Below are positions 6,022-35,483 of a DNA stretch of 39,901 nucleotides, piece by piece. The stretch spans positions 1 to 39,901 of the IMG/VR virus record IMGVR_UViG_3300005573_000023. One strand, given 5' to 3'. The notes under the pieces are model-generated. The model searched no databases. It saw only the letters and a list, made by a program, of their open reading frames with translations, and was not told where the DNA came from. This stretch comes from a virus. Taxonomy: Duplodnaviria; Caudoviricetes. A program made the translations under genes and the position numbers. Within the stretch, counting starts at the first letter, position 1. Each line of letters opens with the position of its first letter.

Positions 6022-7495
6022 CTTTCCCCCCCATCGAATAATCCAAAACATCATATTCAATCTTCGCCTGCTGCCGGGCCCGCTCTCTGCCTCGCCATCC
6101 CTCTTTTCTGACAGGCCGTGCGAAGGAGAGGGCCAAGGCATCGGCCCGGTTCGGCGAGGGCAATCCCCGCTTTTTCATGTCGTCCTTCGATTCCAGGAGT
6201 AGCTTCCCGGCATTTTTCCCCGTGGCAATCACATGGGCCTCCGGTCCTATCAGGTCGTCGCACAACACACGATCATCTGGGATAGCCCCCCCATCCCGCA
6301 ACCATTGCTTCATCTGCGCCCACATATACATCCGTAGGTTGGCATATTGGGGATCCGGAGATGCCTCCCCGAAGGGGACAAGGATCCAGTCCCGTCCCAA
6401 TTGCTTGCCCGCCGAATAGACCCCGGTCCCATAGCCAAAATCGATAAACACGGCATCTGCCTGGTGCTCATCCTCCAGCCTGGCCAGATGACCCGCAATG
6501 ACCATGTCGTTGTCGTTCTTCTGAAAAGTAGCCAAGATCGAAAAGACCAGGCCCTGCCTCATCCCGATCACCGTTTCATCGCTCCCTGTCCAGGCGTTGT
6601 CGAGGGTAATGATCTTGGGTGCCCACTGATATTTGGTGATATGATACTGCCTGGCCCTCGCCTCCTCGACATACTCGCGGGGGATGAATTGATGATCCGA
6701 GGCAGAGGGGAATTGCCCGAGAATGCGGACCTTAACAAAGTCGGAATCCAGCCCATAATCCTCAATCCATTGATTGATCTGGTCCTTGTTTGTCCGGGTG
6801 ACCGAGCGGCTATCTATTTGCCGGGTGATCCAGCGTGTGCGGAACCGGTGGAAGCAATCAAAGAATCGCCCCTGATTGCGTGTTGGGTTGCCGAAGGCCA
6901 ACCAGAAGGCTCCCCTCTCGGTCATGGCCCCCTCGGTTACCTCCCAGATCACATCATCGATCAGTGAGGCTTCGTCATAAATGATCAGGACATTTTCCTC
7001 ATGCGTGCCGGCAAAGGCTTCTGACCGTTCTCTGGTCCATGGGATCGCTGAGGCGAACCAGGTCTCCGGATGTGGGACGAAGTAGAACTTTGTGGCCGTC
7101 CATTCAAACCAATGGGCATGTATGGCCAAACGATGCCACTTGGCCAATTCACGCCATGTTTTGGTTGTGAGTTGGGTTTGGGTATTGGCCGTGACGACGA
7201 TCTGGGGGTGGGCGCGGGTTGAGATGAACCAGAGGATGATCCAGGAGACCAGGGCTGTCTTGCCGATGCCATGTCCAGAGGCTACCGCCACCCGCACAGA
7301 CTCCCGTGACGTCAGGGTGGCCTTCCCGACCTCCGCCAGGATGTCTGCCTGCCAGGCCTCCGGACCGTCCTCACTGGCAAGCGGCCCCTCGCCCCAAGGA
7401 AAAATGTAATGAACGAAGCCAAGAGGGTCGTCGTAGAACTGGGCGACGTGATCCATCAGGGTCTCATCACGTCTATTGGCCGTCATCACCGCCAT
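6008..7495 (-). CDS. terL: Terminase large subunit
   Basis: Walker A ASGHGIGKT, Walker B IIYDEAS, FGNP, C-terminal SPNRADAL nuclease motif. Confidence 0.96.
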   Translation of the reverse strand: MAVMTANRRDETLMDHVAQFYDDPLGFVHYIFPWGEGPLASEDGPEAWQADILAEVGKATLTSRESVRVAVASGHGIGKTALVSWIILWFISTRAHPQIVVTANTQTQLTTKTWRELAKWHRLAIHAHWFEWTATKFYFVPHPETWFASAIPWTRERSEAFAGTHEENVLIIYDEASLIDDVIWEVTEGAMTERGAFWLAFGNPTRNQGRFFDCFHRFRTRWITRQIDSRSVTRTNKDQINQWIEDYGLDSDFVKVRILGQFPSASDHQFIPREYVEEARARQYHITKYQWAPKIITLDNAWTGSDETVIGMRQGLVFSILATFQKNDNDMVIAGHLARLEDEHQADAVFIDFGYGTGVYSAGKQLGRDWILVPFGEASPDPQYANLRMYMWAQMKQWLRDGGAIPDDRVLCDDLIGPEAHVIATGKNAGKLLLESKDDMKKRGLPSPNRADALALSFARPVRKEGWRGRERARQQAKIEYDVLDYSMGGKDGRQ

Positions 7496-8422: not shown

Positions 8423-8773
8423 ATGATCATAAACAAAACGCATCTGGACCTGTATGGGATTACCCGCTCAATGAGTGGAGTGGTGATCTATGGCCGAGAG
8501 GCCCTAGTCTGTAATTGGGCCTCTATTGATGGCCTACCCCGCCTGGACCCTATGGGCGTCCGGGTTATCGGCCTCGGGGAGGAGATCCCCGAGGTGGAGG
8601 GCCGGGACGCAACCGGCCCAGAAATAGCCGCCATCCTCGGCGGCGTCCGGATAATATATTCGGACGCCCCAGCAGGGGACATTGATGACCTATTCCGTGG
8701 CCGGTGCCCCGGGAAGGTCTATAGCTTCCCGGAATTCGGGGCGATCGTAATCGCCCCGTGCGGCTGGAATTGA
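8423..8773 (+). CDS. Hypothetical protein, first gene of the accessory operon
   Basis: 116-aa ORF behind the promoter; AGGAGG is unusually close to the ATG, so the start is uncertain. Confidence 0.75.
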   Translation: MIINKTHLDLYGITRSMSGVVIYGREALVCNWASIDGLPRLDPMGVRVIGLGEEIPEVEGRDATGPEIAAILGGVRIIYSDAPAGDIDDLFRGRCPGKVYSFPEFGAIVIAPCGWN

Positions 8774-8789
8774 GTCGGAGAGGAAGGCC

Positions 8790-9626
8790 ATGAACCTGGA
8801 AACCCGCCTCCGGGAGGCGGGGTATATCCCCCGCCGACCGGAGCTATTAGCGCTCCTGGGGGTCCTGTCCCGGACCAACGGATCGGTCCGGGCCCTCCTA
8901 TTGGAAGGTCCCCCGGGTGCGGGTAAAACAGCCCTCGCCGAAGCGACGGCGAGGGTCCTCGGAGGAGGGTATATCTATGCCCTCCTACACTCTTGGTCAG
9001 ATGACCAAGAGTTGTTCGTCGGAGTTGACGTCGCCGCTGCGGTGGCGGGCGACGCCGACCACGTCCGTCAGCCGGGCATCCTCGCCCGGGCGGCGGAATT
9101 GTCTCTGTCCGCCTCGCCGGGCAGACCGGTAGTGGTCTGTCTGGACGAGGTGGATAAGGTCCAGGAGCGGACCGAATATCTGCTCCTGGATTTTTTACAG
9201 ACCGGGAGGGTCCCGGTCCGGCCTGGTGTCCAGCTCCAGGCCATAACACAAAATCTGCTGGTCTTCATGACCAGTAATGCCACCCGATCCTTCTCCGGCG
9301 CTCTGTTGCGTCGGGTCCGGAGGGTGTGGGTGGCCCCTCTACCAGTTGACCTGGTAGAGGATATCTTGTCTCAGAAGACCAGTCTCCCTCACGGCCTGGT
9401 GAGGGTCACCAGGAAGGTGGCCTATGCCGTGGCAAAGGAGGGAGGCCGTCAGGTCTCTCTCCAGGAGCTGGAGCATCTGCTCCTGGAGCTCTCGTCCGTG
9501 GCAGAGAGCATTGAAGACGTCCGCTACATCGTTAGTGGTTGGACGTCAGATGGAAGAACTCTGCCTGCACGGGACCTGTGTGCCCCTGTGTGGGCAGAGT
9601 TGATAAAGTCCAGGAGGGCCAAATAA
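8790..9626 (+). CDS. MoxR-family (CoxD-like) AAA+ ATPase
   Basis: LLLEGPPGAGKT Walker A, VCLDEVDK Walker B, TSN sensor I, ALLRR arginine finger. Confidence 0.9.
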   Translation: MNLETRLREAGYIPRRPELLALLGVLSRTNGSVRALLLEGPPGAGKTALAEATARVLGGGYIYALLHSWSDDQELFVGVDVAAAVAGDADHVRQPGILARAAELSLSASPGRPVVVCLDEVDKVQERTEYLLLDFLQTGRVPVRPGVQLQAITQNLLVFMTSNATRSFSGALLRRVRRVWVAPLPVDLVEDILSQKTSLPHGLVRVTRKVAYAVAKEGGRQVSLQELEHLLLELSSVAESIEDVRYIVSGWTSDGRTLPARDLCAPVWAELIKSRRAK

Positions 9627-11068
9627 TGCCCTACTGGGCTAAATATTGGACCCTCAGGGACCTCCGGCGCTATGCCGGCAGGCATGGGGTCCAGAAGGCC
9701 GTCCAGAAGGCCAGGGCCTTGACTCAGAAGGATTCTAAGATCCTTCTGGCGGCCGGCTGGGTCCCCGCATATGAGAATGGTGGAGAATACACCATTCATA
9801 AGGGGCCCATAAAGCCCTATATGGACATCCTAAAATGGTGGGGTCTCATCCCACCAGACCTGGCGGCCATTGACCGGGCCATCACTCTGCTTGGCCCGGA
9901 TTATGAGTTCCGGTCGCTACTGACGTGTCCGTGGCGGCCCGACAGGGAAGAGCAGAAGGAAGACAAGAAGGAGGAGGTGATCGAGCCCTCCTCTGGTGGA
10001 ACTCCACAAGAGGAGTCCACAGAGGAGGGAAACAAAGAAGGGGATGACGGTCAGCCCCGTTGCGGGGAAGATGCCGGAGAAGGCTCGAAAGAGGCCTCCG
10101 GGTCTGGCCCCACACTCGGAGAAATCCAGCGGGAGGGTGCGCCCGACGGGGGTGGCCGAATGGAGTCGAGCCCTAATGAGAAGGGTGAGATGACCGAGGG
10201 GAATAGCACGCCCCGGGCGGACACCATAGGTGCCGTCTCCGACACTACCCAGTGCGATGCTGGGTCTGCGGCTGGGGAGATGGACGCCAATGGTGAATCC
10301 CCTAACTTGGCCGAGAAATTTGGGGGCGGGGAGGCCGCATCAACCGCTCCTACCGGATACGCCTTTGGTGGCGTGTTCGCTAAAATTAAAGATGAGAAAA
10401 GCCGCTTGAAGACCCGTGCGTCTGCTGAGGTTGCACGAGCATTGAAGCGGCTTTTTTCTTTGTGGCTCGGCGGCCTGGAGGAATCCCCTCGCATCGACGG
10501 ACGCCGCTTGGTGAGGGAGCTCATCTCTAAACGTTACCAGATTAGCCGGGCCAAACGCCGGGAACTGGAGACCGGCACCATCTTGCTGATGGCCGATGTC
10601 TCTGGATCATGCTCTGCGGCCGCCCCCCAGACGATTGCCGCCTGTCAACAGGTAGCCCTGGAGTTGGATAGAGTTATTTTGATCGTCCACTCTAATGGGT
10701 GCCCTGTTGAGGTCATGACCAGAGACGGCATCTTCGGCATTAACATAGATATAACCAGGTGGAAGAGGGCAGAGGTATTGAACTGGTGGCGACGTGAGAT
10801 GTTCCAAAAATATCATCTCGTCGGTGCCATCAACTTCGGAGACTGGGACGCAGGAGACGTCTTAGAGCTAATCTCCGCTCAGTGCCCTCTGGTATGGTTG
10901 GACAGCTATGCGGCCATAGCTGGCCCAAAACCTGTCCATCGGCATAGCGCCCTCAGAGACCAGATGACCTGGGCTACCCCACCTATCGTCTGGTGGCAGG
11001 GGGTCATTGATATTGGCTCTGCAGCTATAGCCCTTAGAGCTGCAGTAAGGGCTATAACCAAAAAATGA
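9626..11068 (+). CDS. vWA-domain partner protein (CoxE/CobT-like architecture, long acidic linker)
   Basis: TAATG coupling to the ATPase; E/G/S-rich central region; MIDAS DVSGS after a hydrophobic strand; later FGDWD. Confidence 0.8.
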   Translation: MPYWAKYWTLRDLRRYAGRHGVQKAVQKARALTQKDSKILLAAGWVPAYENGGEYTIHKGPIKPYMDILKWWGLIPPDLAAIDRAITLLGPDYEFRSLLTCPWRPDREEQKEDKKEEVIEPSSGGTPQEESTEEGNKEGDDGQPRCGEDAGEGSKEASGSGPTLGEIQREGAPDGGGRMESSPNEKGEMTEGNSTPRADTIGAVSDTTQCDAGSAAGEMDANGESPNLAEKFGGGEAASTAPTGYAFGGVFAKIKDEKSRLKTRASAEVARALKRLFSLWLGGLEESPRIDGRRLVRELISKRYQISRAKRRELETGTILLMADVSGSCSAAAPQTIAACQQVALELDRVILIVHSNGCPVEVMTRDGIFGINIDITRWKRAEVLNWWRREMFQKYHLVGAINFGDWDAGDVLELISAQCPLVWLDSYAAIAGPKPVHRHSALRDQMTWATPPIVWWQGVIDIGSAAIALRAAVRAITKK

Positions 11069-11084
11069 AAGGGGGTGAAACGAC

Positions 11085-11297
11085 ATGAAACTCGCTTGCG
11101 GCAAAGATCCAGTGGCTGAGGGAATTGAGCGTCAGCCAGGGGTATGGGACATGCGTGTCTTTGACCGGCACGTAGAGTCATGTCCAGAGTGCACGGCGCT
11201 GGTCCGTAAGATCCGCCGGCGCTTGGAGGACGCCCTACGTAAGGGCGCTCCATCTACAATCATTGTAACAGCCAAAGACCTGGGCATCAAGGCTTAG
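11085..11297 (+). CDS. Small zinc-finger protein with ZAS (zf-HC2, anti-sigma-type) motif
   Basis: C5-x23-H29-x3-C33-x2-C36; GGGGGTG SD. Confidence 0.7.
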   Translation: MKLACGKDPVAEGIERQPGVWDMRVFDRHVESCPECTALVRKIRRRLEDALRKGAPSTIIVTAKDLGIKA

Positions 11298-11338
11298 GCC
11301 AACGGACGGGCCCGGGGACAACACGGGCCAAACCAAGG

Positions 11339-11373
11339 GCCGACTATCCCAATGAGGGATGGTCGGCTTTTTT
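11339..11373 (+). terminator. Rho-independent terminator closing the accessory operon
   Basis: GCCGACTATCCC-AATGA-GGGATGGTCGGC-TTTTTT. Confidence 0.9.
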
Positions 11374-11514
11374 ATTTCGACCGGTTTTGGCCAGAGAAAA
11401 GAGAGCTTTTTGCCGGCACAGGGGCGGCCTTTTTCACTGATTTTTGAACCTAAATTATGCGGTTTTTCCAATAAAGCTTACAACGGAAAATTTTTTGGGA
11501 ATTGGAGGGACAAC

Positions 11515-11712
11515 ATGAAAGAAGCAAGCAAAAACATGTTCCTACGCAACATTCCCCAGTCTGTCCATCGGGCGCTGAAGGCCCGTGCGGCCCTGGAGGG
11601 CAAGTCTATGCAGGGACTGATCCTGGACCTGATCTGGGAATACATCAACAGCCCACTTCCGGGCGTGGGAAAGAAAAAATTAGACACTAAGCATGGCGAT
11701 AACAAACAATAA
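11515..11712 (+). CDS. Arc/FitA-like ribbon-helix-helix DNA-binding protein
   Basis: MFLRNIPQSVHRALKARAALEGKSMQGLI; GGAGG SD before ATG 11515. Confidence 0.85.
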   Translation: MKEASKNMFLRNIPQSVHRALKARAALEGKSMQGLILDLIWEYINSPLPGVGKKKLDTKHGDNKQ

Positions 11713-12841: not shown

Positions 12842-13689
12842 TCCTCAATCACCCCCTTCTTGCGCTTCTCCCGATAGCCACCCTCTGAGATTTTCTCCCA
12901 CCTTCGCATCGCAAAGTCTATATTTGCTACCCAGCCCCTGTCGTTTCGGCCGAGGAGGAATGGGCAGTCATGTAGAGACTCGAATAGATCACCCCACCAC
13001 TCCAGGGGATGATGTTTTAGGGCGGACCTAATAGCCCGTTCCCGCGCCGGCGATACAGGTAGCCTAACCCTTGGTAGCTCCCTCGGCGCTTTTTCGTTCC
13101 ACAAGTTCACAAGTTTTTTAACCAGAGAGACAGGGGTGGGTCTATCCGACCCGACAGGGTCGGTGGACTCATGGACTATACCTTGTCTTTTTTCTTTTTC
13201 TGTTTCTGTTTCTGTTACTGTTTCTGTTACTGTTTCTGTTTCTGTTTCTGTTACTGTTTCTGGTTTCGAATGGGTTTCGAAAGGGATTCGAAACCGTTTC
13301 GAAAGGGTTTCCAAATGGTTATAAACTGGTAATAATATCTTGGACTTAGGAAGGCCGTAAAATAATATCACTAAATTCTTACATTGGTTGGGATTTCCTG
13401 GTGGGTTATGCTTCAAGAATTTATCGACAACAACCACAGAGGTAGTTTCATCATAGGTTACGAAACCCTTTCGAAACAGTTCCGAAAGGGTTTGCGAAAC
13501 CTTTGCCGTTGACCATTTCAGGTCCTCGGCTATATATCCTTTCTTTAGGACATAGGCCCCCAGGGCGTTTGAGTGAGGGCAGGTCAATATGTATAGGAAT
13601 AGCAGCTTCCCATCTGGAGACAATGAGATAAATTTTTCATCATGCCAAATCTTGACCTCAATATTTTGGTAACGCCCCTTCTTGTTCAT
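12784..13689 (-). CDS. Phage replication initiator / replisome organiser
   Basis: IWHDEKF..LS..GKLLFLYILT.PH N-terminal wHTH, ETVTETETE linker, C-terminal FLLGRNDRGWVANIDF. Confidence 0.85.
   Translation of the reverse strand: MNKKGRYQNIEVKIWHDEKFISLSPDGKLLFLYILTCPHSNALGAYVLKKGYIAEDLKWSTAKVSQTLSELFRKGFVTYDETTSVVVVDKFLKHNPPGNPNQCKNLVILFYGLPKSKILLPVYNHLETLSKRFRIPFETHSKPETVTETETETVTETVTETETEKEKRQGIVHESTDPVGSDRPTPVSLVKKLVNLWNEKAPRELPRVRLPVSPARERAIRSALKHHPLEWWGDLFESLHDCPFLLGRNDRGWVANIDFAMRRWEKISEGGYREKRKKGVIEEWLEEEEAKAKHEDGLSVV
13199..13505. repeat. Iteron cluster / likely replication origin inside the initiator gene
   Basis: TGTTTC/TGTTAC hexamer array ~13200-13260; repeated GGTTTCGAA/TTCGAAAGGG units at 13261-13320 and 13456-13505. 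Confidence 0.7.
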
Positions 13690-15881: not shown

Positions 15882-16724
15882 TTATTCCCTTATCTCCTCA
15901 ATCACCTTCCGGATGCGCCCCAGGGTTGCCTCGGCCCATTTTTCGGATCTTAATAGGTCGTCCAAATTCGAGACCGAGTGTTCCTCACCCTTTTTATCGA
16001 CGAACCGGGAATAACCCTGGATAAGTTCCGATTCAGTCCCTCCGATCAACCCTACGAGTTCCTTCAGGGCCGATTCCAGTTTTTCCCTCAATGATAATCC
16101 CTCTGGGGTTTTTTCTTCCTGGGAATCGTTGGTTTTGCCGGCCATCTTTGGCTGCGAAATTGGGGGCTTCCCCTTTTCCCTGTATTCGATTCCCCTTATG
16201 TCCTCCCTTTTGATCCCGGCATACTCAAGGAGGTCTTCATAAGTCAGGTTCCTGATTCCCAGGATCCGGGTAATCCCGTTCCCTAAAAGGTTGGTCAGTG
16301 CCGCCATCTTGAGGTCACGGCGGTCCAGGGGCTTTTCCCCCACCTTCTTGCCACCCTCCCAGATATATTTCCGGAAAAACTCATCCCGGCTTGATCGGGA
16401 GCCCTCGGCCTCGATGGACCTCCCGGCCAAAGAAAACCTGCCCCTGTAAGTATATGTGATCGTTCCATCCTCCTCCTGTTCCATGGTTGGTTCATCAATT
16501 TGCCAACTGATATTGAACAGATTGGCGATCTTCTCGGCCCCAGAGGCCATTAGATACGGTCTCCCATTCTGATCAACCCAGTCATTGGCATTGGTGACCT
16601 TCAAGGCCACCCTCTTGATCTTCATCACCGCATCAATCCTCTTTTCTGCCCTTTCGGCGATGGCGATTAAGTGGTCATCGCCGAAGACCTCCCCCGTTAC
16701 CTTTTCGATCTGATACTCTTCCAT
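15882..16724 (-). CDS. Putative single-strand annealing/recombination protein
   Basis: PYLMASGAEKIA, EGSRSS, KMAALTN patterns; adjacent to the exonuclease; AGGAGG SD. Confidence 0.55.
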   Translation of the reverse strand: MEEYQIEKVTGEVFGDDHLIAIAERAEKRIDAVMKIKRVALKVTNANDWVDQNGRPYLMASGAEKIANLFNISWQIDEPTMEQEEDGTITYTYRGRFSLAGRSIEAEGSRSSRDEFFRKYIWEGGKKVGEKPLDRRDLKMAALTNLLGNGITRILGIRNLTYEDLLEYAGIKREDIRGIEYREKGKPPISQPKMAGKTNDSQEEKTPEGLSLREKLESALKELVGLIGGTESELIQGYSRFVDKKGEEHSVSNLDDLLRSEKWAEATLGRIRKVIEEIRE

Positions 16725-16741
16725 GCTTTTCCTCCTTTTTT

Positions 16742-17062
16742 TCATTCACCAAAGTGACCATTCCACCATCCGCAGAAGCCAAGATTAACGAAGCCAAGAA
16801 CCTTCTGCCGTGCAGAGGCCCAACGCTCTTTTCTGGCCTGTTTGGTCTTGGCCTTCTCCTCGGCCAATTTCATCATGCGGATCAAGACGAAGGATGGAAT
16901 GAATCCATCACGCCTGATCTCCGCCCTGGACACGGCCACTGACGGCTGCCGAGGTGGATCAATAACCCGGATGTAATTCCGGAGCCTGAGAACTTCATCG
17001 GCAACAGCCCGGGACTTAGGACTCATGTTTCGTATCGCCACTAATCTCTGGTCCATGTTCAT
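16742..17062 (-). CDS. Hypothetical protein
   Basis: ORF with SD in the tightly packed early operon. Confidence 0.6.
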   Translation of the reverse strand: MNMDQRLVAIRNMSPKSRAVADEVLRLRNYIRVIDPPRQPSVAVSRAEIRRDGFIPSFVLIRMMKLAEEKAKTKQARKERWASARQKVLGFVNLGFCGWWNGHFGE

Positions 17063-17204
17063 TTTCTCCCCCTTTCTTACATTCCAGGTATTCGATTCTG
17101 GCTTGGAGCTCAAAAATTTTCCTTCCGGCCATCAGGGCACAGCAAAAGAACCCCATGATCGCCCCACCAATTAGAAGCAGCAAATAGATGATCAAGAATT
17201 TCAA
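17016..17204 (-). CDS. Small membrane protein
   Basis: N-terminal hydrophobic helix then short coiled coil; overlaps the upstream stop. Confidence 0.6.
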   Translation of the reverse strand: MKFLIIYLLLLIGGAIMGFFCCALMAGRKIFELQARIEYLECKKGGENEHGPEISGDTKHES

Positions 17205-17539
17205 TTTCCCATCCTCCCTCGCTCAATAATCTTCCATCCGCCCCAATCGTGCCTGGATGCATAGTCCAGGCATTGCTCGTAATGCTCGCACCCGCCGTAG
17301 TATGGGTGATAGAGATGACACCCCTCCGGTCTCCCCGTGACAGCCTGTCGAATTAGGCACGATGCGGGCTGTCCAGCCTCCTTCTGCATGTGCCTATTTC
17401 CCGCCTGGCCACCAGCGCCATTTCGCCGCAGCTCTCTATCCATCGGAATGCCCCTCACTGCCCGGTAATAGGCCGTCGTGTAGCTGAGGCCATATACCTT
17501 CATCCCGCCCCATATCTCCGGGTATCGAATCTTCGGCAT
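17201..17539 (-). CDS. Hypothetical regulator (N-terminal HTH-like, C-terminal Cys cluster)
   Basis: GLSYTTAYYRAVRG; C...CEHYEQCLDYA; AAGGAGG SD. Confidence 0.65.
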   Translation of the reverse strand: MPKIRYPEIWGGMKVYGLSYTTAYYRAVRGIPMDRELRRNGAGGQAGNRHMQKEAGQPASCLIRQAVTGRPEGCHLYHPYYGGCEHYEQCLDYASRHDWGGWKIIERGRMGN

Positions 17540-17598
17540 GGTTCCTCCTTATGACCGAGTTAGAGCCCCCGGTCCCGGCATTCGGGGATGGTCAAAGC

Positions 17599-17619
17599 GC
17601 CGACTTCTCCCACCGCCCA
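17599..17619 (-). promoter_or_regulatory. 21-nt element in the early mRNA complementary to the integrase leader
   Basis: Plus strand GCCGACTTCTCCCACCGCCCA vs GCCGACTCCTCCCACCGCCCA at 18774-18794 (20/21), transcribed in opposite directions. Confidence 0.8.
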
Positions 17620-17627
17620 GAAAGGGT

Positions 17628-17831
17628 TCACTGCGCTAACTCCAACTTCTTGACTTCCTTGAATTTTTTTTCGAAGAAGTCAATTAGCCCTTCTCTTACT
17701 TCTTGTCTGATTTCTGGCCCCATGTTATCCAGGGCTACCTTAAAATAAATGGAAAGTTCGGGCAGGATCGCCCAGGTCTCATCGGCCAGCCAGACGGCGG
17801 GACAGGAACGGGAGGAAGGGGAATTAGCCAT
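17628..17831 (-). CDS. Small protein in the cII position
   Basis: First gene after cro, G-rich SD before ATG 17831; function inferred from position only. Confidence 0.55.
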   Translation of the reverse strand: MANSPSSRSCPAVWLADETWAILPELSIYFKVALDNMGPEIRQEVREGLIDFFEKKFKEVKKLELAQ

Positions 17832-17854
17832 TAAGACCCCCCTGTATAAATTTG

Positions 17855-17882
17855 TTGGCAAATTATTTTGTTGTTCTATAAT
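17855..17882 (+). promoter_or_regulatory. PRE-like promoter (antisense to cro, towards cI)
   Basis: TTGGCA 17855-17860, 16 bp, TATAAT 17877-17882. Confidence 0.55.
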
Positions 17883-18112
17883 TGTTGATATTGGTCGTGC
17901 CATATTTCCTGGGGGTCAACCCCGAGGATACGGCATAGTTCTTTCCTGACCTCTGGGAGAACCAGGGAACCTCTGAAGATGTGATTGATTGTGGAGCGAT
18001 GGATTTTTCGCCCCAATCTCTCGGAGAGGATTTCGGCGAGTTTGGCCTGTGACAGGCCCTTCTCTATGGTTAGGATTTTTAATTTTCGATGGACAGGATT
18101 TAGTTCATACAT
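17876..18112 (-). CDS. cro: Cro-like XRE HTH regulator
   Basis: GLSQAKLAEIL...IHRSTINHIFRG...LGVDPQEIW; divergent from cI. Confidence 0.85.
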   Translation of the reverse strand: MYELNPVHRKLKILTIEKGLSQAKLAEILSERLGRKIHRSTINHIFRGSLVLPEVRKELCRILGVDPQEIWHDQYQQL

Positions 18113-18146
18113 TGACCATACCTCCTTTAGGTAAAATTATGCAGTC

Positions 18147-18195
18147 GAGATACAACAATTGTTGGAACATGTCAAGCCAAAAATACAACAATTAT
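18147..18195. promoter_or_regulatory. Immunity region: leftward lytic promoter and operators
   Basis: Minus TTGACA (18175-18170)-17 bp-TATCTC; palindrome CAACAATTGTTG (18153-18164) in the spacer; ATACAACAATT repeated at 18150 and 18183. Confidence 0.7.
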
Positions 18196-18209
18196 TTAAA
18201 TTAAGTTAA

Positions 18210-18647
18210 ATGGCTGAAAAATCTCCAGAATTTAGCGCAAGACTAAACTCCCTATTTAAAGAAAAGGGGCTAAATCCAAACAGGTTTGCCAATGTTCTGG
18301 GGATAAAGACGCAAAACATCTATAACTATTTGAAAGAAGGACGAATTCCGGAAGCGCCCATCCTGTATAAGATCGCCCAAGCCCTGGGCGTCTCTATGGA
18401 ATGGCTCCTAACCGGTAATGGCGAATAAAAACAGGGGGATAGGACTGGCAGGCTTACCCGTTTCGACGACTATCTTTTGCAAAAAGACCCGGCATACAAA
18501 AAGGCAAAGGACGACCTGTATCGTATATTTGCTTCGAAAAGATCCGACATCAAAAAGGTGGTGGCAAATACCCTGGCGGTCTGCGCCGAGACCGTTGATG
18601 ATCATGAGAGACATCTGCTTACGACCGGGACTTCGCCTGGAAAATAG
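18210..18647 (+). pseudogene. cI: CI-like repressor interrupted by in-frame TAA (18426-18428); only the 72-aa HTH domain would be made
   Basis: XRE HTH ending LGVSMEWLLTG; the same frame stays open 72 more codons to TAG 18645-18647. Confidence 0.7.
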
Positions 18648-18737
18648 CTCGGGGCCGTGGTCATGTATCGCCGACCAACGGCCCCGAAGACCAGAGGCGG
18701 AAAGTAATTTTCGTAAAATTTTGAACCGTATTTCAAA

Positions 18738-18766
18738 TTGACGGCCACAATGAAATGTTCTATATT
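18738..18766 (+). promoter_or_regulatory. Sigma70 promoter for the int leader / integrase
   Basis: TTGACG-17 bp-TATATT; predicted +1 about G18774. Confidence 0.8.
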
Positions 18767-18773
18767 GGAGTTT

Positions 18774-18820
18774 GCCGACTCCTCCCACCGCCCATCTTGG
18801 AGGCAAGATGGGCGTTCTTT
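18774..18820 (+). ncRNA. Integrase leader RNA / attenuator (~47 nt)
   Basis: 15-nt unpaired 5' arm, perfect 11-bp stem CGCCCATCTTG/CAAGATGGGCG with GGAGG at the loop and ATG in the 3' arm, then TTCTTT. Confidence 0.65.
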
Positions 18821-19872
18821 CCCCTCCATTAACCATGCGATGTAAATGGTATCGGAAGGGGCCGAATTCCTACCAGGTATATCTTCACTGGCAAGGTAGG
18901 GCCTATTATCGCTCTCATTATGACCATCGCTTCAAGCTGATCAACGAAGAGATGGCCCGTCGTCTGGCCGATGCCATAAATCAGGACATAGACCTGAAGG
19001 GTCCAGGCTTCGATCCTAGGCAATGGTTTGAGACCAAAGGCTTCTTATTCAAAGAGTATGCCAATAGGTGGCTGGCCGAAAACCAAGACAGATACGCACC
19101 ATCGGTGGTGAGAGATGTGGTTCGTATGGTGTCGTCTTTCGTCGCCTATTTCGGCGAGATGGACATCAGGTCTATTAGGGCCGGCAACATCGCTGACTAT
19201 CTCAAAACTCTATCCCGCCTGTCGCCCAAGACACAAAAGAATTATTTGATTCAGCTCCATAAGATTTTTTCCGATGCCCTAAAGCGTGAAGACATTGCCC
19301 GGATTCCGGGATTCCCGTCCATTATTGTTCCAGAGCCGGAAACCAGGTGGCTATCCGAAGCAGAGCAGGATAGGGTATTCGAGAAAATTCCGGAGGAACA
19401 CCGCCCCATCTTTTGGTTTCTCCGGATCTATGCCTGCCGTCCAGCAGAGGCCAGGGCCCTAATGTGGGACATGGTGTCATTTGAAAAAGGAATCATTGTC
19501 GTTAGGCGGTCCTTCTCCGGGGGCCAATTAAGAGAGCACACCAAGGCCAGGGAGATTAGGTATCTGCCCATGATTGAGCCCATAACCTCCATCCTCAGAG
19601 AGATCAGAGGGATCAGCGGTTTTGTTTTCCGCCGGCCAAATGGAAGGCCCTATGGCGCTGATATGGGCAAGATCTGGAATAGGGCCTGTGAGGCGGCCGG
19701 CGTCGAAAGGATATGTCTCTACCAGGGAACCAGGCACAGCCGGGCCACCCAGCTGGCGAGAGACGGCAAAAGTCTGAGGGGCATACGAGATCTCCTCGGA
19801 CATGCCAGCCAGAGGACGACCGACCGCTATGAGAAGGCGGCAGCCGAAGGGATCAGAAAGCTGCTGGAATGA
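18808..19872 (+). CDS. int: Tyrosine integrase
   Basis: Catalytic R (ACRPAEA), K (HTKA), YQGTRHS, LLGH, TTDRY; start 18808 (GGAGG 4 nt upstream) or 18835. Confidence 0.95.
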   Translation: MGVLSPPLTMRCKWYRKGPNSYQVYLHWQGRAYYRSHYDHRFKLINEEMARRLADAINQDIDLKGPGFDPRQWFETKGFLFKEYANRWLAENQDRYAPSVVRDVVRMVSSFVAYFGEMDIRSIRAGNIADYLKTLSRLSPKTQKNYLIQLHKIFSDALKREDIARIPGFPSIIVPEPETRWLSEAEQDRVFEKIPEEHRPIFWFLRIYACRPAEARALMWDMVSFEKGIIVVRRSFSGGQLREHTKAREIRYLPMIEPITSILREIRGISGFVFRRPNGRPYGADMGKIWNRACEAAGVERICLYQGTRHSRATQLARDGKSLRGIRDLLGHASQRTTDRYEKAAAEGIRKLLE

Positions 19873-19874
19873 GA

Positions 19875-20054
19875 AACCTTGCAGAACCTTGCCGACCCAC
19901 CCATATCTAATCGATAATATTACAGAACATTCGGGTTCGAACCCCGTTGGGACCACCAGATTTTCATAATATTTCCAATATATTGCCAACTTGATGGACC
20001 TTGCGAAACCTTGCAGGATGGGATTGCCGGCAATGATTGAAATTGCAACCTTGC
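19875..20054 (+). repeat. Integrase arm-type sites flanking the att core
   Basis: (A/G)ACCTTGC at 19875, 19885, 19997, 20007, 20047; pairs are 10 bp apart. Confidence 0.85.
19932..19958 (+). mobile_element. attP core = 3' end of a tRNA (probably tRNA-Glu)
   Basis: CGGG-TTCGAAC-CCCGT-TGGGACC-A-CCA: T-arm, acceptor strand, discriminator and CCA; no 5' half. Confidence 0.9.
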
Positions 20055-20090
20055 ATTATTTACAAATTGTGAGTAGGCGTGATATAAGAT

Positions 20091-20210
20091 GGGTCTGGAA
20101 CGGTCATCGCCCGTTGTGATCGTTCGACCCCTGATCAGAAGGGTATATAGACGGGAAGGGGGCAGGCCCCAAATGCCCTGAATGAAGGGCGGGGAACCTG
20201 CCCCCTTTTT
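20091..20210 (+). ncRNA. Candidate structured small RNA with intrinsic terminator
   Basis: Upstream TTTACA...TG-A-TATAAG; 5' hairpin 20091-20130; 3' multi-stem 20156-20207 with T-tract. Confidence 0.55.
20156..20210 (+). terminator. Long terminator hairpin
   Basis: AAGGGGGCAGG/CCTGCCCCCTT outer stem, inner CCCC/GGGG and GCCCT/AGGGC, then T-run. Confidence 0.8.
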
Positions 20211-20221
20211 ATTCGATAGGA

Positions 20222-20494
20222 CTACCAGATTTGACCTCTCCTCTGAGTTCCTCCCCCAAAGTTGTTATAGGGATCGCCCGGAGTGATGATTCCCTTGTTG
20301 GGGTTGTAATTTCCGGGATAATTGTAATTGTCGGTCCGGGTCCCGTTAGGATAGGTCCTCTGATAGGGCTGGACCCAGGTATCCTTTACCCCATCCCGGT
20401 CGGTGTCCCGCCAGTATCCATGCACCCAGGCCCCGAAAGACACCGATGCAAAAACCAAGACCATTGCCAAGGCCAAAAATACGATTTTTTTCAT
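20222..20494 (-). CDS. Small secreted protein (moron)
   Basis: Signal peptide MKKIVFLALAMVLVFASVSFGA; VHGYWR...VQPYQRTYPN.TRTDNY..PGNYNP; GGAGG SD. Confidence 0.85.
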   Translation of the reverse strand: MKKIVFLALAMVLVFASVSFGAWVHGYWRDTDRDGVKDTWVQPYQRTYPNGTRTDNYNYPGNYNPNKGIITPGDPYNNFGGGTQRRGQIW

Positions 20495-20530
20495 AGGCAC
20501 CTCCCCAAAAAATAATTTTACACCATGTTT

Positions 20531-34847: not shown

Positions 34848-35172
34848 GCTTCACCATCAGTTTCGCCACCTCATCGCAATCTATTCCCAACTTCTGACAC
34901 AGGATGATATTGGTATAAAGCAGGGTCCCAAGGATCAGCCGAATCTGCTTGATGTCTTCGTGAATCTCTTTGAATCGGGCATCGTCTGCAGCAAGTTTGG
35001 AGTTTTGAGCTTCTACCAAAGCCATTATCCGATTCAAACACGCTTCCCGCTCTTTTGTGCACATGGCCGCCGTCACCCTCGATGATTCAGCGAAATACCG
35101 GTCCCAGGCCCACTTTCCCAACAACGCTAAGATAGCGGAAATGATAATGTAGACTACTTGCTCCCAAGTCAT
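34834..35172 (-). CDS. Holin-like membrane protein
   Basis: N-terminal TM helix plus coiled coil; upstream of the endolysin. Confidence 0.55.
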   Translation of the reverse strand: MTWEQVVYIIISAILALLGKWAWDRYFAESSRVTAAMCTKEREACLNRIMALVEAQNSKLAADDARFKEIHEDIKQIRLILGTLLYTNIILCQKLGIDCDEVAKLMVKHGVE

Positions 35173-35483
35173 GGATTGAATATGACCCTTCCTATGTTTT
35201 CGGTTTAACTCTCGCCCAATATCCGGGCATCTGATTGTATGACAGATACGCTCTTAATTCCGACTTGGTCGTAATCTCATTATTCTGGTCATCCCATTTC
35301 CATCCGACATACTCGCCATTGGCGTCGAAATAGTTTTTGGGCCTGACTATCTTGACTAAATCCCCATCCACCCCGATCACCTTGAGAATGGGAGTAAACA
35401 TCTCATGCCAGACATCACCAACTTCAGGATGACACAAATGTTTTTCTTCCAAATTATTATTCGTCATGGATTGAATATGACCC
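35168..35483. repeat. 21-bp direct repeat flanking a single gene
   Basis: GTCATGGATTGAATATGACCC at 35168-35188 and 35463-35483. Confidence 0.9.
35192..35467 (-). CDS. Hypothetical protein within the direct repeats
   Basis: 91-aa ORF; ATGA overlap with the upstream gene. Confidence 0.75.
   Translation of the reverse strand: MTNNNLEEKHLCHPEVGDVWHEMFTPILKVIGVDGDLVKIVRPKNYFDANGEYVGWKWDDQNNEITTKSELRAYLSYNQMPGYWARVKPKT

Follow-up and report, generated by a model that had tools for sequence, protein, structure and literature searches.

Integrase timing in temperate phages beyond lambda is poorly known. The locus described here raises the question of how the supply of integrase could follow the early genes when int cannot be co-transcribed with the early operon, because that operon points away from it. 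An earlier note on this DNA proposed an answer at the RNA level, namely that the early mRNA, acting in trans, binds a toehold with which the int mRNA begins and opens the hairpin behind it. The window (the whole stretch of DNA that was analysed) is an entire virus record of 39,901 bp with a terminal repeat of 121 bp. Family searches of its proteins identified capsid, head-tail connector, small terminase and tail-collar proteins, together with replication and recombination genes, and most phage proteins among the 57 ORF stretches scanned had no family. Genomes with more distant integrases are mostly labelled as Thermodesulfobacteriota or delta proteobacteria.

The int locus and the repeated segment

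The features of the region, in order of position, are given below; L008, L053, L054 and L057 are relatives described in the next section.

17201..17539, minus strand: 112-aa gene, next after the trigger; no family found
17553..17574, minus strand: second hairpin, just ahead of the ribosome site of the 112-aa gene (predicted fold)
17584..17618, minus strand: bulged hairpin on the early RNA, its 5' arm formed by the trigger (predicted fold)
17599..17619, minus strand: trigger, the complement of the int leader within the leftward early transcript, intergenic
17628..17831, minus strand: 67-aa gene in the cII position; no family found
17876..18112, minus strand: Cro-like HTH gene, first in the early operon (family search)
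18210..18647, plus strand: CI-like repressor gene, broken by a TAA at 18426-18428; open in L008 (145 aa)
18649..18687, strand not assigned: strong hairpin after the repressor stop and ahead of the int promoter (fold; one pair changed on both sides in L008)
18738..18766, plus strand: predicted sigma-70 int promoter, TTGACG-17-TATATT (promoter scan)
18774..18788, plus strand: toehold, the unpaired 5' end of the predicted int mRNA (modelled fold)
18774..18794, plus strand: 21-nt segment complementary to the early mRNA, comprising the toehold and 6 nt of the 5' stem arm
18789..18814, plus strand: 11-bp hairpin with GGAGG (18799-18803) and the start codon (18808-18810) (fold)
18808..19872, plus strand: tyrosine integrase, 354 aa (PF00589, 5.8e-17; phrog_1, 1e-42)
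18815..18820, plus strand: short U-tract; absent from L053 and L054
19934..19963, plus strand: attachment core (contig junctions in both DNA runs)

The earlier note had the copy follow a cII-position gene; the position stands, the cII family identity does not, as the 67-aa protein matches no family. Ribbon-helix-helix-like proteins take its place in L054 and L057, and protein-atlas searches returned no usable match for either the 67-aa or the 112-aa protein. A near-consensus promoter (11/12) at 17855-17882 (+) lies between cro and the cII-position gene and is aimed at the repressor, a site that we take to be like that of an establishment promoter. In the CI-like gene the in-frame TAA follows codon 72 and leaves the HTH domain alone. 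Neither a 100% identical record (L003) nor the contigs of two hot springs metagenome DNA runs show an alternative letter at 18426-18428, and read depth was 69-107 for the phage contigs vs 17 for the junction contig; the uniform TAA and the deeper phage contigs suggest that the phage population here may be derepressed. The hairpin at 18649-18687 possibly insulates the int transcript. On the minus strand it has a T-rich tail, and a weak promoter match on that strand lies at 18736-18707; a short RNA complementary to the 3' end of the repressor gene could arise here. Elsewhere in this minus-strand genome, a plus-strand island (8423-11712) carries an AAA ATPase, a 480-aa protein without a family and a small ribbon-helix-helix gene, and 11-bp and 12-bp tandem repeats, plus an inverted second array, are found at 13179-13498 within the replication initiator gene, where they are likely origin iterons.

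Beyond int, contigs of both DNA runs break at 19934-19963 with other sequence joined on. Read from the sequence, this core resembles a tRNA 3' end, from T-arm to CCA, and it is flanked by four arm-like AACCTTGC repeats, two per side (19875, 19885, 20007 and 20047). An arm-type site for the integrase was considered as an explanation of the 21-mer at the start of the int leader and was rejected, the arm-like repeats being a different motif located elsewhere, around attP.

That 21-mer (18774-18794) recurs on the same strand at 17599-17619 with one mismatch, between the stop of the 67-aa gene (17628-17831) and the next gene, which starts at 17539; a pattern search thus confirmed the earlier report of a copy 1.2 kb off in an early-operon gap. 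The mismatch corresponds to a C-A mispair in the RNA duplex, not a G-U wobble. No further match to the 21-mer with three or fewer mismatches occurs in the window, and none of 100 shuffles reached two. By itself the repeat is marginal (self-BLAST E 0.081 in 39.9 kb) and ranks below another one, perfect over 21 bp, at 35168/35463, so the significance of the 21-mer rests on relatives. The higher-ranking direct repeat (35168-35188 and 35463-35483) spans the starts of two late-region genes.

The int promoter was present as earlier described, and G18774, where the 21-mer begins, is the eighth base past the -10 hexamer and the predicted +1. Folding of 18774-18825 bore out the rest of the proposed leader: 15 unpaired bases are followed by a perfect 11-bp hairpin (-20.7 kcal/mol, z -3.0), GGAGG is formed by the last stem base and the 4-nt loop, and the int ATG at 18808 lies within the 3' arm with TTCTTT behind it. 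A purine-rich site precedes this upstream start, whereas the family-conserved Met at 18835 is preceded by pyrimidine-rich sequence only and has no ribosome site ahead of it. An in-frame ATG or GTG lies 27 nt ahead of the conserved Met in all five loci that carry the leader/copy pair, and over the nine codons before that Met the window and L008 show three differences, two silent and one Val-Ile.

Distribution of the pair among related integrases

With an alignment of the best 53 full-length integrases of 59 matches, loci were gathered from collections of viral, genome and metagenome sequences. From 142 loci and the window, 68 were kept after dropping duplicates, loci lacking the integrase N-terminus and those with less than 900 nt of further upstream DNA, and the 200-nt stretch leading up to the conserved Met of each was aligned against up to 6 kb upstream. 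A same-strand match within the leader was found in five of the 68, representing four lineages: the window (score 18.5), L008 (22), L053 (21), L054 (19) and L057 (20.5), with shuffle maxima of 12.5-15. The integrases of the four relatives are, in the same order, 95%, 50%, 46% and 46% identical to that of the window. Among the other 63 loci the best same-strand score was 16.5, except for L078 (22), a self-match in A/T runs away from the leader that was rejected as a further case. High self-match scores on the opposite strand were seen in L039, L014 and L025.

The matched segments are 21-27 nt long and lie 1.1-2.6 kb apart. Identity between leader and copy is 95-100% within a phage (with two bulges disregarded in L054), against 48-71% between lineages; the two have thus changed together along several branches, as base pairing predicts. 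Co-conserved copies with matching changes, which the earlier note had proposed looking for, were in this way found in four lineages of differing sequence. The imperfections across the five loci (one G-U, one C-A and two bulges) are tolerable for an RNA duplex. In every one of the five, the copy occupies the intergenic gap that follows the second gene of the leftward operon. Counted from the first base of a TTGAC hexamer, the match starts 33-36 nt on, which puts it on the predicted +1 or no more than a few bases from it. It then runs 4-12 nt into the stem of the ribosome-site hairpin and ends 13-19 nt short of the in-frame start, never covering the ribosome site. A promoter scan of the five loci detected no promoter ahead of the copy. 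Judged from these sequences, the element is a real, conserved RNA-RNA pairing element, and it is highly probable that the early mRNA pairs with the int leader, whatever the sign of the effect.

In a quick tree the window, L008, L053 and L054 form one clade (SH-aLRT 92) with L057 outside, and the four lineages may share one origin rather than having four. Further lineages were not recovered by sub-alignment scans of viral contigs, in 401 + 21 genomes, or among annotated phages, where the best integrase match was about 28% identical. A search with the hairpin pattern returned 91 loci, of which just three, all known, are followed by an integrase; unrelated viral intergenic hairpins (L180, L181, L213, L172, L146 and others) show the same stem and GGAGA-loop pattern with no integrase after them. 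No copy was found in L023, which consists of pieces 51-64% identical with a split integrase frame. Around 6350-6390 it has TTGACA-17-TATACT six bases before the conserved Met, of the leaderless type, and since an N-terminal extension such as that of L023 can be a leaderless promoter, N-terminal extensions of database proteins are an unsafe marker of the system.

The pair coincides exactly with a cro(-) cI(+) int(+) layout, which it accompanies in five loci, though in the quick tree neither layout nor leader type can be separated from phylogeny. With a profile seeded on eight HTH proteins of L008, the window, L053, L054 and L057, a minus/plus HTH pair directly before int was detected only in the five pair-carrying loci of the 68; these seed loci match the profile by construction, and divergent repressors elsewhere may have been missed. 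The remaining 63 include one locus with the opposite HTH order (L060) and four with single HTH matches. In four phage-like relatives (L052, L059, L060 and L065), int ends a run of same-strand genes, and a ribosome-site hairpin starts near the +1 with neither toehold nor copy. More broadly, in all 14 examined relatives of this hairpin type (L052, L055, L056, L058, L059, L060, L062-L066, L072, L077 and L080) the int frame is open for 57-195 nt upstream, through promoter and hairpin, and long and short forms of Int are possible. In several of them the preceding gene stops 25-60 nt before the int start, and in some an upstream int-frame start overlaps the stop of the previous gene. Ribosomes on a long early transcript could open the int hairpin in cis in the co-directional relatives. 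This, though likewise confounded with phylogeny, suggests a family rule in which the hairpin keeps int low and the early transcript lifts it, which favours the reading of the pair as an activating device.

Predicted opening of the int start and alternative readings

The leader hairpin was compared across the five loci by predicted folds. The start codon lies inside the 3' arm in four and directly behind the hairpin in L054. The toehold is unpaired in the window and L008, partly unpaired in L053 and L054, and paired with coding sequence in L057. Two pairs are changed on both sides in L053, with the form of the hairpin kept, and two stem pairs are broken in the 95% relative L008, which weakens the stem; covariation in the hairpin is not significant, 50 of 500 shuffles scoring as high (n = 3 sequences).

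Two-strand ensembles were computed at 37 and 55 °C, and the cost of freeing positions -12 to +3 around the int start was compared with and without the trigger. The cost drops in all five loci at both temperatures, weakly in one: at 37 °C from 16.6 to 9.0-9.7, 11.8 to 3.6-5.3, 12.8 to 5.7-6.2, 13.9 to 11.4-12.3 and 15.4 to 10.7 kcal/mol. Randomising the stem-invading bases of the trigger (30 draws per locus) abolishes the gain in four of the five loci; in L054 the gain is 1.5-2.5 kcal/mol, equal to the randomised control (13.4 vs 13.6). The predicted ON state in the window is not fully open, with about 9-11 kcal/mol remaining, and its GGAGG can re-pair with a CCUCC at about 18823 that L008 does not have. 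With the trigger in context, binding energies were -18 to -32 kcal/mol for cognate pairs vs -3 to -11 between lineages, so the cognate pairs are predicted to be orthogonal between lineages. Four natural cognate pairs of differing sequence would make a ready and cheap set for testing cognate against cross combinations.

The trigger is itself largely paired in a predicted hairpin, whose loop holds the complement of the first bases of the leader in all five loci. The stem of this hairpin is no better than shuffled downstream arms (shuffle fraction 0.14-0.92), and its geometry follows in part from the adjacency. A few bases ahead of the trigger, at 17624-17632 (-), lies a motif like GTSAACCC, found at the same place in L008, L053, L054 and L057 and positioned independently of the upstream gene's stop in the five loci; it is possibly a processing site or a protein site.

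The core proposal of the earlier note is thus matched by co-conservation and favoured by folding. The element is most likely a natural toehold-type translational switch on the integrase, and we think it more likely than not that the early lytic mRNA activates int translation in trans. Int would be driven by its own repressor-independent promoter, with translation dampened in the lysogen, where the hairpin would hide the ribosome site and start codon until a trigger binds. On infection or induction the early operon would be transcribed and its intergenic segment would bind the toehold; branch migration would then strip 4-12 bases of the 5' stem arm, the rest would open more easily, and Int would be made just as integration or excision falls due. 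Pairing in trans would in this way replace the co-transcription open to relatives in which int closes the early operon. The leader may, in addition, have some lesser influence on the early RNA. A fuller proposal is that a family of temperate phages uses a natural, lineage-orthogonal toehold switch of one mRNA on another, whose duplex also remodels the early RNA; recombination would then be coupled in both directions to the lysis-lysogeny decision without any protein, an arrangement that arose when int left the early operon. This proposal has in our view an even chance of being correct.

The co-variation evidence says nothing about sign, and control of the opposite sign, which we consider unlikely, would make the unpaired leader a ribosome standby site that the early mRNA blocks or draws into an RNase III duplex, with Int made only once the repressor shuts the early operon. 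IstR-1 acts on tisB by blocking such a site. The duplex would end 13-19 nt before the start, about the edge of a ribosome footprint, its 21-27 bp could serve as an RNase III substrate, and integration only after commitment to lysogeny makes biological sense. However, the complementarity enters the stem by 4-12 nt in all five loci and lowers the opening cost, which would work against repression. A repressing RNA could also cover the ribosome site outright, and it never does so in the five loci, while the co-directional relatives tie int to the early transcript.

A further alternative is that the int leader, short or full, serves mainly to silence or terminate the early mRNA in the lysogen, in the manner of OOP, c4 and P4 CI RNA; this reading, in part already offered by the earlier note, we judge slightly less likely again. 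Its target lies directly behind the cII-position gene in all five loci, in a predicted hairpin whose loop matches the leader's first bases and which precedes a structured ribosome site, and the U-tract in the window, L008 and L057 could yield a short RNA. Folding energies gave no consistent support: the effect of the leader on opening the next early gene's ribosome site was -0.8, +0.7, -4.4, -0.4 and +2.0 kcal/mol, and flipped sign for two loci under another method. The target hairpin is, moreover, no better than shuffles, two lineages are without the U-tract, and pairing into the int stem would be unnecessary. A switch of the anti-SD type on the next early gene, plausible by eye, was rejected because the energies are inconsistent across loci and methods.

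The hairpin in the window scored as terminator-like, and U-rich tails follow it in three of the five loci (the window, L008 and L057; two of four lineages), as would suit a transcriptional attenuator that ends an RNA of about 47 nt and is antiterminated by the early mRNA. This part of the earlier proposal did not prove general: with the U-tract missing from L053 and L054, attenuation and the 47-nt RNA are not the shared mechanism, and what the hairpins share is more probably a role in translation than one in termination. The ribosome site and start lie in or beside the hairpin in all five loci and the stem is weakened in L008, which makes an attenuator very improbable. Least probable of all is a DNA-level element (a protein-binding site, the guide/target pair of an RNA-guided protein or a relic duplication), for which the direct repeat in DNA, its single-genome E of 0.081 and the many phage proteins without a family leave some room, but the repeat is non-palindromic, differs between lineages yet matches within them, tolerates indels and begins at the predicted +1, the arm-like repeats of Int are a separate motif around attP, no TnpB, Cas or IS110 family was found among the 57 ORF stretches scanned, and contigs of the two DNA runs contain no deletion joint between the copies.

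Comparison with known systems

Activation by small RNAs through anti-antisense pairing and regulation of one mRNA by another are known in general. In the literature searched, which was mostly open access and took in little of the older phage antisense work, no description of trans pairing between an early mRNA and an integrase leader was found. Rfam gave no match at gathering score in the window and the four other loci, and a snoRNA match at E 0.08 in 16500-20500 was dismissed as chance.

Lambda int is activated by CII at pI, and the divergent layout seen here is the same as the 186/P2-type arrangement of int-cI vs cro-cII. Retroregulation of lambda int by sib, through RNase III 3' processing, is covered in the excerpted part of PMC5389636, as are streptococcal prophage integrases with antisense transcripts and RNase III sites upstream, there apparently acting in cis and with a role not shown. 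A sigma-H-dependent int promoter also appears in an excerpt of PMC2869324. The task in lambda (CII/pI and sib) and in 186/P2 is the same as that proposed here, an Int supply matched to the phage decision, but it is carried out by a protein activator, 3' processing or co-transcription, and not by two mRNAs pairing at the int 5' end.

Lambda OOP, P1/P7 c4 and P4 CI RNA also work in the lysis-lysogeny switch through pairing between RNAs, as far as the relevant passages go (PMC12197685, PMC7067206, PMC4825925). The target position just behind the cII-position gene recalls OOP in particular. OOP, however, is cis-encoded and overlaps the cII 3' end, whereas the RNA here is encoded 1.2 kb away and its target is intergenic; c4 and CI are small RNAs dedicated to repression or termination, and in those passages neither they nor OOP are integrase leaders. 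Like the activation proposed here, IsrK of prophage Gifsy-1 works in trans: in the portion of PMC4825925 that treats it, this RNA opens a helix over a ribosome site and turns translation on. There the activator is a short form of the transcript that it activates and the output is an antirepressor, unlike the pairing of two divergent transcription units 1.1-2.6 kb apart with integrase as the output.

Other phage families can be searched sequence-blind for this signature, an early operon that contains a copy of the 21-27 bases with which the int transcript begins. If the activating reading is true, the locus would represent a third solution to integrase control besides CII/pI and co-transcription, in which one mRNA pairs with another in trans. 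The nearest likeness is to the synthetic toehold switch, in which, as summarised in an excerpt of PMC11423158, a hairpin sequesters the ribosome site and start, and a trigger binds a single-stranded toehold and displaces a strand. The int leader is predicted to share this plan, with its hairpin, its 5' toehold and a separate trigger covering the toehold and part of the stem. It differs from the synthetic device in that only 4-12 stem bases would be displaced, activation being predicted from opening energies, and in that the trigger is a structured intergenic part of a polycistronic mRNA in a natural system; if true, it would be a natural instance of a design that has until now been known from engineering.
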